Virus record (IMG/VR): IMGVR_UViG_2802429244_000013
Span: 1 to 38,936 of that record
DNA from: a virus
Lineage: Duplodnaviria; Heunggongvirae; Uroviricota; Caudoviricetes
Strand: one strand, 5' to 3'
Length of the DNA stretch: 38,936 bases
In this document: positions 27,974-37,501 of the stretch, one piece after another
Position numbering within the stretch: position 1 is the first letter of the stretch
How the letters are laid out: every line of letters begins with the position of its first letter
Position numbers and translations under genes: made by a program
Notes under the pieces: model-generated
The model's input: only the letters and a program-made list of their open reading frames with translations
The model's database searches: none
What the model was told of the DNA's origin: nothing

Positions 27974-28129
27974 TTACTCCTCAGGTTCGTAAGCTGTGAA
28001 GACAGCGACCTCCGTCTGGCCGGTTCGGATTCGTACCTCGCAGAGGTCTTTCCTCGTTACCAGTGCCGTCACTATGACGGTTAAACAGATGACGATCAGG
28101 GCGATTAACATCGCCTTTTGCTGCTTCAT
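27974..28129 (-). CDS. hok: Hok-family type I toxin (HokD/RelF-like, 51 aa)
   Basis: MKQQKAMLIALIVICLTVIVTALVTRKDLCEVRIRTGQTEVAVFTAYEPEE matches HokD as recalled; AAGGAG RBS; conserved hok leader elements upstream. Confidence 0.85.
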   Translation of the reverse strand: MKQQKAMLIALIVICLTVIVTALVTRKDLCEVRIRTGQTEVAVFTAYEPEE

Positions 28130-28186
28130 AGCCTGCTTCTCCTTGCCTTTCGGCACGTAAGAGGCTAACCTACGTGTGCAAGTCAT
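28130..28186 (-). other. mok-like upstream reading frame in the hok leader
   Basis: ATG at 28186 opens a 19-codon frame (MTCTRRLASYVPKGKEKQA) running in-frame into hok; contains the conserved AGCCTCTTAC block. Confidence 0.35.
28143..28171 (+). promoter_or_regulatory. putative sok antisense promoter
   Basis: Plus strand TTGCCT (28143-28148), 17-nt spacer, TAACCT (28166-28171), antisense to the hok RBS region; same layout as the plasmid R1 sok promoter as recalled. Confidence 0.4.
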
Positions 28187-28252
28187 AGATATGGCCTCAG
28201 ATTAATGTTAAGCGTCTTGCAGGACGCGTAATGTTAACTGGGGCTTTTCTCT
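28178..28252 (+). ncRNA. sok: putative Sok-like antisense RNA
   Basis: Would start about 7 nt after the TAACCT -10 and run antisense across the mok start; 3' region ctggggcttttctc resembles the Sok 3' end as recalled. Confidence 0.35.
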
Positions 28253-28304
28253 ATCTGCCGTTGGTGTTCATGCCTGAGACAGATAGCCTCAAGCACCCGC
28301 CGCA

Positions 28305-35167: not shown

Positions 35168-35590
35168 TTAATGAACAACAACAGAATCGCCGGACGAACC
35201 GCCGTCGCTGAAATGCGCTTTACGGTAAACAGCCTGGACCGCATCATCATGCGCATCAATTGCCGTACTCAACGCTTCCTGCGCCGCCAGTAATGCACGG
35301 CGTTCCAGGGTATCGAAGATGCAGAGTCGGTGACGCAGCTCCCGCGGAAGGATTGCCAGAATTGCTGGGATCAGCTTCTGAATTTTTTCCCTTTGCGCTT
35401 CCGTTTCACCTTTTAACCAACGGCGATAGATGTTCTGCTGATTGTTCCAGTCCTTGCCTGGTGTCAGAGACAATTCACCTCCCCCCTGGCGCAGATATTC
35501 TTCAGTAATTGCGTTAGCGACCCACGCCTGCCCTTTTTCGGCTGCCAGGGCTAACAACACTGATTCGATGTGCTCATGCCTGATTTTCAT
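35168..35590 (-). CDS. ydaT: YdaT-like protein (Rac prophage toxin-like)
   Basis: 140-aa ORF matching the size and recalled sequence character of Rac YdaT; overlaps the ydaS-like stop. Confidence 0.65.
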   Translation of the reverse strand: MKIRHEHIESVLLALAAEKGQAWVANAITEEYLRQGGGELSLTPGKDWNNQQNIYRRWLKGETEAQREKIQKLIPAILAILPRELRHRLCIFDTLERRALLAAQEALSTAIDAHDDAVQAVYRKAHFSDGGSSGDSVVVH

Positions 35591-35849
35591 GAATCAACTC
35601 CGGTTCATCTTGTGTGTTAGCCTTACATCCAACAGATAAACCGTCGGTTGGATCCGGGTATAAATCCGGCCGTAATTCATGAGGAGTCACCCCAGTTGCA
35701 AGGTAAATTTGACGGACCCGTTCCCCTGTCGGCACCCGTCCATTGTATTCATTTGCCCATTTGTGTATTTGAGACGGCCAGGCCCCTATCGCGCGCCCTA
35801 GTGGGCGAATACCACCGGCAATCTTTATTGCTTTGTCCAAAGCAGTCAT
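35574..35849 (-). CDS. ydaS: YdaS-like Cro-type HTH protein
   Basis: 91-aa ORF with strong GGAGG RBS; MTALDKAIKIAGGIRPLGRAIGAWPSQIHKW fits the YdaS/Cro-like HTH family; divergent from the repressor. Confidence 0.65.
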   Translation of the reverse strand: MTALDKAIKIAGGIRPLGRAIGAWPSQIHKWANEYNGRVPTGERVRQIYLATGVTPHELRPDLYPDPTDGLSVGCKANTQDEPELIHENQA

Positions 35850-35952: not shown

Positions 35953-36342
35953 ATGGACATGAGAAAAAAGCAATACGACACCCCGCTGGCGGAGAGATTA
36001 GATGCGATCTCGCAACAGCATCATTTAAGCGGTTCAGATTTAGCGCGCATCGCTGGAGTGGGCCGTTCGTCAGTTAATGCCTGGAAAAAGAGAGGGACAA
36101 TCAGCAAAGATTCCGCGGCCAAAATAGCGGAAGCCACAAATGTTTCCCTTTCCTGGCTACTGACGGGAAAGGAGGATACGAGCAGGGAAGTGCTTGATGA
36201 TGATGAGAAAGCCCTGCTCGATGTTTACAGAAACCTACCTCCTGTAGAACGCAGAAATATGCTTGCAGCTTTTCAAATGCGACTTCAAAAATTGACTGAA
36301 TTTTACTCGGAATACGTTGATCCGATAACACGTCAAAAATAA
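35953..36342 (+). CDS. prophage repressor, DicA/RacR-like HTH protein without a peptidase domain
   Basis: N-terminal XRE-type HTH (LSGSDLARIAGVGRSSVNAWKKRG); C-terminal helical region resembling DicA; no S24 peptidase motifs. Confidence 0.7.
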   Translation: MDMRKKQYDTPLAERLDAISQQHHLSGSDLARIAGVGRSSVNAWKKRGTISKDSAAKIAEATNVSLSWLLTGKEDTSREVLDDDEKALLDVYRNLPPVERRNMLAAFQMRLQKLTEFYSEYVDPITRQK

Positions 36343-36363: not shown

Positions 36364-36387
36364 ACCGCCGGAAGGCGGTTTTTTTTT
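36364..36387 (+). terminator. rho-independent terminator after the repressor gene
   Basis: Hairpin ccgcc-ggaa-ggcgg followed by nine T residues. Confidence 0.65.
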
Positions 36388-36503: not shown

Positions 36504-36722
36504 ATGGTTGGTGAAGATCTGGTTGTTATTAACGGTCAATTGTGCAGCAAAGATGTGGCAGCCATGCTTATTAGCAAGGTTCTTCCAACTGTGCTGGAGG
36601 TCATTGCAGAAAAAGTAAAGGCTGGTCGTCCAGACAAGGAAGTTGAAGAGGCGGCAAAAACAGTTGTTCATGCCGCTACAGAAGCAATTATTTTGAAGAG
36701 CCTAGTTTCGCCCAAGCCTTAA
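36504..36722 (+). CDS. hypothetical small protein (72 aa), first gene of the rightward early operon
   Basis: ATG at 36504 with AAGGGGAAAAAAG RBS; the track ORF extends upstream to GTG 36405. Confidence 0.45.
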   Translation: MVGEDLVVINGQLCSKDVAAMLISKVLPTVLEVIAEKVKAGRPDKEVEEAAKTVVHAATEAIILKSLVSPKP

Positions 36723-36882
36723 GTGAATCGGCGCTTTTTTTAGCATCACGTTCATTGAGTAGTGACAAAAACTCATTCTCAGCATTCTCGATTTCCGAGA
36801 AAAATTCTTGATGAGTTGTTTCTCGCTGCGATCTGATGCTGAAAGCTAAAGCAAGTAGCCAGGCTTTGTCTTTATTATCCAT
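36688..36882 (-). CDS. hypothetical small protein (64 aa)
   Basis: ATG at 36882 with TAAGGT RBS; convergent with and overlapping the 3' end of the preceding plus-strand gene. Confidence 0.3.
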   Translation of the reverse strand: MDNKDKAWLLALAFSIRSQRETTHQEFFSEIENAENEFLSLLNERDAKKSADSLKAWAKLGSSK

Positions 36883-37039
36883 AGGAATACCTTATTACTG
36901 GTTGTGTGAGAACTCCAGTATACCACCGAGCCTGAAGTGGTAAAAAGACAGGCGCACAACACGAAGGCGCATTTCCGGTATTCATAAAGAGTCGGTCTTG
37001 TCTGTTAAATTTAAATGGTGGGAGTGCGCCTCCGGTTGT

Positions 37040-37114
37040 AAATAACGACATTGCTGTGTGTAGTCTTGGCGGCATCAGTTTTTTCTTGAAGTTCGGCTGA
37101 TGTCCGCCCTTTTT
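37040..37114 (+). ncRNA. dicF: DicF-like small RNA candidate
   Basis: TTGGCGGCATCAGTTTT matches the recalled DicF core at 16 of 17 positions; long hairpin ggcggcatcag / ctgatgtccgcc then CTTTTT; lies between the repressor-proximal genes and the kilR-like gene. Confidence 0.35.
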
Positions 37115-37279
37115 AAAGTGAATTTTGTGATGCGGTGAATGCGGCTAAGCGCACGCGGAACAGTTAAAAGCATCAGTGTTATGGGTGGATTATCCGGCGT
37201 TAATTGTTAACTGGTTAACGTCACCTGGAGGCACCAGGCACCGCATCGACAAAATTCATTTGTAAAAATGGAGATAATT

Positions 37280-37501
37280 ATGATTGCTCATCACTTCGGA
37301 ACTGATGAAATACCACGTCAGTGTGTGACCCCTGGCGATTATGTTCTTCATGAAGGTCGGACATATATCGCCTCGGCAAACAATATTAAAAAGCGAAAAC
37401 TTTATATTCGTAGCCTGACTACAAAAACATGCATTTCTGACTGCATGATTAAAGTCTTCCTCGGTCGTGATGGTTTACCTGTAAAGGCGGAGTCATGGTA
37501 A
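37280..37501 (+). CDS. kilR: KilR-like small protein (73 aa), putative cell-division inhibitor
   Basis: ATG at 37280 with GGAG RBS; 73 aa; synteny with Rac kilR-ydaE-racC-recE. Confidence 0.45.

Follow-up and report, generated by a model that had tools for sequence, protein, structure and literature searches.

The best explanation overall, and a very probable one, is that 37018–37114 on the plus strand of this prophage sequence is an ortholog of kilS, the gene for an Hfq-dependent small RNA (sRNA) of Rac-type lambdoid prophages, with the mechanism set out below as a proposal for how the RNA operates. The whole 38,936-nt stretch of DNA that was analysed is called the window here, and the full 97-nt sRNA, which extends from the inferred start of transcription through the last U of the U-run, is called the window RNA. 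Judged by its sequence, the candidate is KilS, an already-known sRNA of a Rac-type prophage that is related to DicF yet is not DicF. The original prediction had presented it as a DicF-like candidate, but the candidate is not a new one: it aligns end to end with the annotated and northern-verified kilS gene of Escherichia coli K-12 (b4833), with 96 of 98 positions identical. In the K-12 MG1655 record, kilS is annotated as an ncRNA at 1418405–1418502 on the minus strand, with sieB and kilR on either side.

RIL-seq data led to the prediction of KilS in the K-12 Rac prophage, and a northern blot confirmed it; it is Hfq-dependent, accumulates in stationary phase, and has yncL as a RIL-seq partner, its RIL-seq interactions numbering just 1 to 3 (Bar et al. 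2021, PMC8175672). Its transcription start was mapped at nt 1 and an RNase E site at nt 32, K-12 coordinate 1418471 (PMC8175672 supplement). By analogy, expression, Hfq dependence, transcription start, RNase E site and contact with yncL would all carry over from K-12 to the window RNA. Of the northern probes used for K-12 KilS, probe 1 lies on the 3’ arm of the hairpin and is KilS-specific. Probe 2 (AGGACTACACACAGCAATGTCGTTATTTAC, PMC8175672 supplement; K-12 kilS is 1906–2003 of locus L002) is complementary to the segment of KilS that resembles the host sRNA RprA, described below. Sixteen nucleotides of this probe are identical to RprA, and cross-hybridisation is possible; RprA is likewise Hfq-dependent and accumulates in stationary phase.

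Rac prophages with the same region were recognised by megablast against complete E. coli genomes. The maximum identity to 36880–37290 was 95.9%, with none higher among these genomes. The closest phage to 37000–37290 was Escherichia phage Rac-SA53, at 98.3% identity. A species-level scan found K-12-type variants in Escherichia and Shigella and one divergent variant in Citrobacter. In the best-matching E. coli genome, RefSeq has no annotation at the kilS position. KilS has no Rfam family and falls under the DicF threshold, so annotation pipelines overlook it. A KilS ortholog in one further Rac-like prophage is itself an ordinary find, the sRNA having been named and verified already.

Homology to K-12 KilS, whose start is mapped, puts the first nucleotide of the RNA at 37018; the predicted start at 37040 lay 22 nt too far 3’. 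A putative extended −10 element, TGtTAAATT, can be read at 37003–37011 (+), 7 nt upstream of the inferred start, and from about −55 to +48 the region is the same as in K-12 Rac apart from two upstream substitutions. A simple −35/−10 promoter scan called no promoter at 37003–37011. The 5’ domain of the RNA (37018–37049, +) is predicted to fold into two small hairpins, GGAG/CUCC and GUUGU/ACGAC, and its 3’ end was set by homology to the RNase E site at nt 32 of K-12 KilS. Variants of these two helices have only one-sided changes that preserve pairing (U-G to U-A, G-C to G-U), and no compensatory pairs were found among them.

The 3’ half of the RNA (37068–37114, +) is a rho-independent terminator and a likely Hfq-binding module. 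The long hairpin and the CTTTTT after it, both described in the original prediction, were confirmed: a 41-nt GC-rich hairpin at 37068–37108, with arms GGCGGCAUCAG and CUGAUG-U-CCGCC, is followed by CUUUUU at 37109–37114. The hairpin has 5+8 base pairs, one bulged U and a 14-nt loop. Folded alone it has an energy of −19.0 kcal/mol, and the full window RNA folds at −31.6 kcal/mol, with a z-score of −2.5 against shuffles. A simple terminator scan did not call the hairpin at 37068–37108 because its loop is longer than 8 nt.

There was no statistically supported covariation for any helix by column counts, arm swap or RNAalifold. In a MAFFT alignment of 24 hairpin variants, 76.7% of cells were paired, with no excess over shuffles; the columns say little because the base of the stem hardly varies and the upper stems differ in register. 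When the 5’ and 3’ halves of hairpins were swapped between variant classes, native and chimeric hairpins were equally stable (p = 0.38), since several classes have arms in common. RNAalifold, applied to 12 full-length KilS-type variants, gave no compensatory pairs, and its consensus was distorted by mosaic hairpins.

The order of genes around the RNA is a CI-type repressor, small ORFs, the sRNA, a conserved leader, and kilR, which starts 165 nt 3’ of the sRNA. The repressor gene (35953–36342, +; Pfam Phage_CI_repr, 1.8e-12) is in the RacR/DicA position and defines the upstream immunity region. The ydaS and ydaT genes are divergent from it, at 35168–35849 (−) (Pfam YdaS_toxin, 6.2e-10, and YdaT_toxin, 4.1e-11). 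The kilR gene (37280–37501, +) encodes an inhibitor of FtsZ and cell division that is identical to K-12 KilR at 69 of 73 residues (95%). A perfect terminator-like hairpin (ACCGCCGGAAGGCGGT) directly 3’ of the repressor gene, at 36364–36379, is bidirectional, each strand having a T-run. On the opposite strand, a 64-aa ORF (36688–36882, −) takes the place of the sieB gene of K-12 Rac. It has no Pfam match, and its RefSeq label in E. coli BCE049 is hypothetical protein. A promoter-like site at 36944–36917 (−) is divergent from the kilS promoter.

The leader (37115–37279, +) would be the 5’UTR of kilR upon read-through of the terminator. It matches the Rfam model for STnc100 (RF02076), with a full-length alignment at 37111–37287 (+) that scores 42.3 bits, below the gathering score of 47; STnc100 resembles only this adjacent kilR leader and not the sRNA. 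The sequence for about 175 nt 3’ of the hairpin is about 90% identical to the spacer between dicF and dicB in Qin, and Qin and Rac share this leader although dicB and kilR are unrelated genes. Leader matches were found in 4633 of the 5426 complete E. coli genomes, in up to nine places per genome. Conservation of the leader is higher than that of the sRNA itself, and there are partial matches in phages P7 and D6. Possible roles of the leader are as a Rho-utilisation site or as an element that controls the translation of kil-type genes. Expression of kilR rises when NusG is repressed, and read-through is under NusG control (PMC5793797).

The reading to which the original prediction chiefly led is a functional DicF: the RNA would act antisense, stop ftsZ from being translated and so inhibit division alongside KilR. 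The likeness on which it was based was found again. The segment TTGGCGGCATCAGTTTT (37066–37082, +) differs from the K-12 DicF core TTGGCGGTATCAGTTTT at one of 17 positions. With up to two mismatches allowed, the core has one match in the window and none in 100 dinucleotide-preserving shuffles. The segment is inside an alignment to the Rfam DicF model (RF00039) at 37055–37109, which in E-value mode is full-length and scores 41.1 bits (local E = 1e-7), and a local alignment of KilS with DicF scores 34, with p of about 8e-6. The relative position was also as described, with the repressor, small ORFs, RNA, leader and kilR in that order, so that both RNAs come after repressor-proximal small genes and before the gene for a division inhibitor, with a shared leader downstream. 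KilS and DicF are clearly homologous: they have in common a terminator with a GGCGG...CCGCC base, an AUCAGUU 5’ arm and a U-tail, the operon position and some 175 nt downstream. The prediction of an sRNA gene homologous to DicF at the equivalent site of a lambdoid early operon stands.

A functional DicF is nevertheless very improbable. The K-12 DicF sequence, taken from NC_000913.3, scores 76.7 bits with RF00039 and K-12 KilS scores 39.1, while the gathering score of the model is 48. The window RNA, at 41.1 bits, is below it, and a search of the window in gathering mode returned no DicF match. The covariance-model check that had been suggested for the DicF assignment thus came out against it. 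The 5’ part of the RNA was said to differ from K-12 DicF, as it does: the DicF 5’ seed UUUCUGGUGACG is replaced by UUGCUGUGUGUAGUC. The difference is not confined to that part, as the loop and 3’ arm have changed too, with UUCUUGAAGUUCGGCUGAUGUCCGCCC in place of DicF nt 32–53 (CUCCGUGACUGCUCUGCCGCCC). In DicF, the 3’ region pairs with the ribosome-binding site of ftsZ, and the 5’ end pairs with xylR and pykA (PMC5069750).

Pairing with targets was predicted with a windowed, accessibility-corrected scan. It replaced unrestricted RNAduplex of whole sRNAs, which was dropped because it gave long spurious duplexes no better than shuffles, even for the validated pair of DicF and ftsZ. The scan recovered the positive controls, DicF nt 32–53 with ftsZ −28 to −7 and RprA nt 33–52 with rpoS −111 to −93. 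For the window RNA it predicted no DicF-type ftsZ site and gave only −3.2 kcal/mol, which is nothing comparable to the DicF duplex. The processed form of KilS could make a weak, interrupted duplex between its RprA-like segment and ftsZ −28 to −14 (−11.2 kcal/mol hybrid, −6.0 net), and ftsA has been reported among the partners of RprA; both of these are in favour of a DicF-like role. As the window RNA has neither the ftsZ-pairing 3’ region nor the 5’ seed of DicF, DicF-like repression of ftsZ is not expected, and the earlier suggestion that its targets could differ from those of DicF is borne out to this extent. In DicF itself (L003 2383–2435), the 5’ arm UAUCAG would find a better pairing partner in the 3’ arm of the KilS type, CUGAUG (window 37068–37108), than in that of its own hairpin. 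It looks as if the hairpin of DicF is derived and weakened, its 3’ arm having gained complementarity to ftsZ.

KilS and DicF have many relatives. With an invariant 18-mer that closely follows the terminator as anchor, 120 viral loci were collected; these have about 50 distinct variants of the 110 nt upstream, with two kinds of 5’ body and about ten types of hairpin. A Qin/DicF-type body is mostly followed by dicB, and a Rac/KilS-type body mostly by kilR. There are natural recombinants in both directions: for example, three loci (L001, L098 and L120) have a KilS body and a DicF hairpin, and another (L016) has a DicF body and a KilS-like hairpin. Rfam DicF scores form a continuum, from 76.7 bits for K-12 DicF through 61.1 and 55.0 for mosaics, 43.5, 41.1 for the window RNA and 39.1 for K-12 KilS, down to 28.6. 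On comparison of these loci, the window RNA is a member of a mosaic family of DicF-like sRNA/terminator modules, in which bodies and hairpins have been swapped before a single leader. Only the DicF type in this family has complementarity to ftsZ.

The three recombinants with a DicF-type hairpin (L001 2676–2727, from E. coli BCE049, L098 and L120) have the KilS-type promoter as well as the body. They are above the Rfam DicF threshold, at 55 bits, and have no RefSeq annotation. They may combine an RprA-like seed with partial ftsZ complementarity. In three other loci (L008 4747–5234, L066 2972–3433 and L094 894–1359), a DicF-like RNA, an STnc100-like leader, isrK and C4 antisense RNA follow in that order; here the DicF-like module precedes a P1/P7-type immI region and not a kil gene.

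The single-stranded body of the RNA has a likeness to RprA that the original prediction overlooked. KilS nt 23–53 (window 37040–37070, +) match K-12 RprA nt 51–80 at 28 of 31 positions, and the two RNAs have in common an exact 18-mer, AUUGCUGUGUGUAGUCUU (37050–37067), which is the conserved core of RprA directly 5’ of its terminator. The local alignment of KilS and RprA scores 45, a score that none of 20,000 shuffles reached (Gumbel p about 1e-8), and the likeness of the KilS body to RprA is therefore stronger than its likeness to DicF (45 vs 34). Every KilS-type variant has retained a stretch of 10 to 20 nt that is exactly as in RprA, with 20 nt in L120, and the Citrobacter braakii variant, only 85% identical overall, retains the exact 18-mer. 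The window RNA does not belong to the RprA family by covariance score: with the Rfam RprA model (RF00034) it scores 28.3 bits (E = 0.28) against a gathering score of 70, and the core segment alone is aligned.

The window RNA could also be essentially a cis-acting element, an intrinsic terminator or attenuator of the early-left operon that silences the toxic kilR, with the short RNA as a by-product that has no role in trans. All 28 distinct variants that were folded give a GC-rich hairpin and then a U-run, and a hairpin and U-run before the same leader and a kil-type gene are what the variants have in common, while loop and body are exchanged freely; KilS has very few RIL-seq partners, and kilR is known to be controlled through termination and read-through. 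Against a purely cis-acting element, the 31-nt RprA-like segment is outside the hairpin and is nearly invariant, even in the divergent Citrobacter variant. In K-12, Hfq stabilises KilS, and there are chimeras of KilS with yncL; moreover, a dedicated start 50 nt 5’ of the terminator is hard to reconcile with a pure attenuator. As the whole account of the RNA, the cis element is unlikely, though it deserves weight; a role in cis is compatible with a KilS ortholog that acts in trans and does not exclude one.

The RIL-seq partner of KilS, yncL, is also among the RprA targets common to TRIC-seq and RIL-seq (bioRxiv 10.1101/2025.09.11.675593). The RprA-like segment is predicted to be complementary to the K-12 yncL 5’UTR at two sites, −42 to −16 and −100 to −90, and the two sites are predicted alike for KilS and RprA. 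The first of these adjoins the Shine-Dalgarno sequence and has a hybrid energy of −20.7 kcal/mol; the duplex ranks in the best 4.6% of 1248 background windows. Part of the proposed seed is predicted to be base-paired within full-length KilS, which leaves net energies with yncL of only −5 to −7 kcal/mol. The region of RprA that pairs with the rpoS leader (nt 33–52, GGAAAUCCCCUGAGUG) is absent from the window RNA. In the scan, RprA and rpoS gave −11.5 kcal/mol, while the window RNA gave only an unrelated site of −7.3 kcal/mol in the hairpin loop.

The likeness to RprA may instead be incidental, the segment being an Hfq- or RNase E-recognition module beside the terminator, with KilS pairing to its targets elsewhere. 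The validated regions of RprA that pair with rpoS and hdeD are for the most part 5’ of nt 51, KilS and RprA are both predicted to form one weak hairpin (AUUGC/GUAGU), and the predicted net energies with yncL are modest, all of which would suit a recognition module. It is harder to explain in this way that KilS and RprA each contact yncL in interactome data, that KilS and RprA would each pair through the shared segment at the two predicted yncL sites, or that the exact identity extends over 16 to 20 nt, more than generic Hfq or RNase E motifs need. An incidental likeness is rated as rather unlikely, a minority reading of the same data.

Weighing these points, a functionally meaningful RprA-type seed with yncL as the shared partner is a tentative proposal of slightly less than even probability; it was not found in the literature, and none of the papers that were searched names KilS together with RprA or DicF. 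The same tentative standing is given to the idea that KilS is a seed paralog of RprA that the prophage carries into its host: Rac-type phages would have joined the conserved core of RprA (UUGCUGUGUGUAGUC) to a DicF-type terminator behind a promoter of their own. An origin of rprA as a leftover of this prophage locus was rejected, as the likeness is limited to the segment of about 31 nt and there is no match to YdiL. No similarity beyond that segment was found between the surroundings of rprA and the window or the prophage loci. Because nothing else near rprA resembles the prophage loci, the shared piece is a local module and not what is left of a common locus.

The proposed mechanism for the KilS ortholog is as follows. 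Transcription of kilS would begin at the inferred start, 37018, from its own extended −10 promoter, and most transcripts would end at the GC-rich hairpin and U-run (37068–37114), giving an RNA of about 97 nt. The terminator and U-tail of the released RNA would bind Hfq. A cut by RNase E near nt 32, where the site is mapped in K-12, would leave a shorter form with the conserved CAUUGCUGUGUGUAGUC at its 5’ end, and this trimming would expose the RprA-type seed there. The RprA-type segment (UGCUGUGUGUAG) would then serve as the seed for pairing with target mRNAs, yncL first and possibly other RprA targets. The same terminator would also gate the toxic kilR, with KilR made only from read-through transcripts, which must further escape Rho/NusG termination in the conserved leader. 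The sequence identity, the synteny, the hairpin and the negative results for DicF are direct findings. The seed and its dependence on processing, like the attenuator role of the terminator, are steps that we infer.

Several other elements of note are found elsewhere in the prophage. Between 25818 and 26016 (−) there are matches to C4 antisense RNA (66.7 bits), isrK (75.5 bits) and the c4 a1/b1 target element (50.5 bits), which together form a P1/P7-type immI antirepressor control module inside the lambdoid mosaic. No second DicF-like copy, an arrangement known from some viral loci, was found beside the isrK/C4 module of the window. A match to the sok antitoxin RNA at 28124–28298 (−), with 109.5 bits, implies that the prophage region includes a type I toxin-antitoxin locus of the hok/sok kind. 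Among phages, ‘Actinobacillus phage vB_Apl-pPE4’ matches 25–39 kb of the window best, with 94% identity, and E. coli-type Rac/Qin sequence is present in ‘Aeromonas phage AP1’. The host labels of these two phage records (PP818812.1 and MT713136.1) look doubtful.

If KilS is a seed paralog of RprA, the prophage could control part of the RprA regulon without the Rcs signal to which RprA itself responds, or KilS could compete with RprA for targets and for Hfq. The first shared target would be yncL, possibly followed by envelope and division-related mRNAs. DicF, KilS and the 50 or so variants would then make up a cassette system, in which interchangeable seed modules are recombined onto a constant scaffold of terminator, leader and kil gene and so retarget host mRNAs. 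If confirmed, the RprA-type seed of KilS would be a clear instance of a prophage copying the seed of a host sRNA.

Among the known sRNAs compared with KilS, RprA is a chromosomal, Rcs-controlled sRNA of Enterobacteriaceae. In each the shared segment is directly 5’ of the terminator, each is Hfq-dependent and accumulates in stationary phase, and each has been reported in chimeras with yncL. KilS has a different terminator from RprA, and it has neither the 5’ stem-loop of RprA nor a region that pairs with rpoS or hdeD.

DicF and KilS are both Hfq-binding prophage sRNAs. DicF is 53 nt long and has dicB downstream, while the window RNA is 97 nt long and has kilR downstream. KilS has its own transcription start, while the 5’ end of DicF comes from RNase E processing of the ydfABC transcript.

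K-12 KilS and the window RNA are of equal length within 1 nt (98 vs 97 nt), and their promoter-proximal sequence is the same. Through a single substitution, C49 to U (window 37066), the window RNA matches RprA exactly over 18 nt where K-12 KilS does so over 16, and the loop of its hairpin is shorter by one U. The prophage around the window RNA is a different mosaic from K-12 Rac, but in each case the RNA is part of a Rac-type immunity region and has the conserved leader and kilR immediately downstream.
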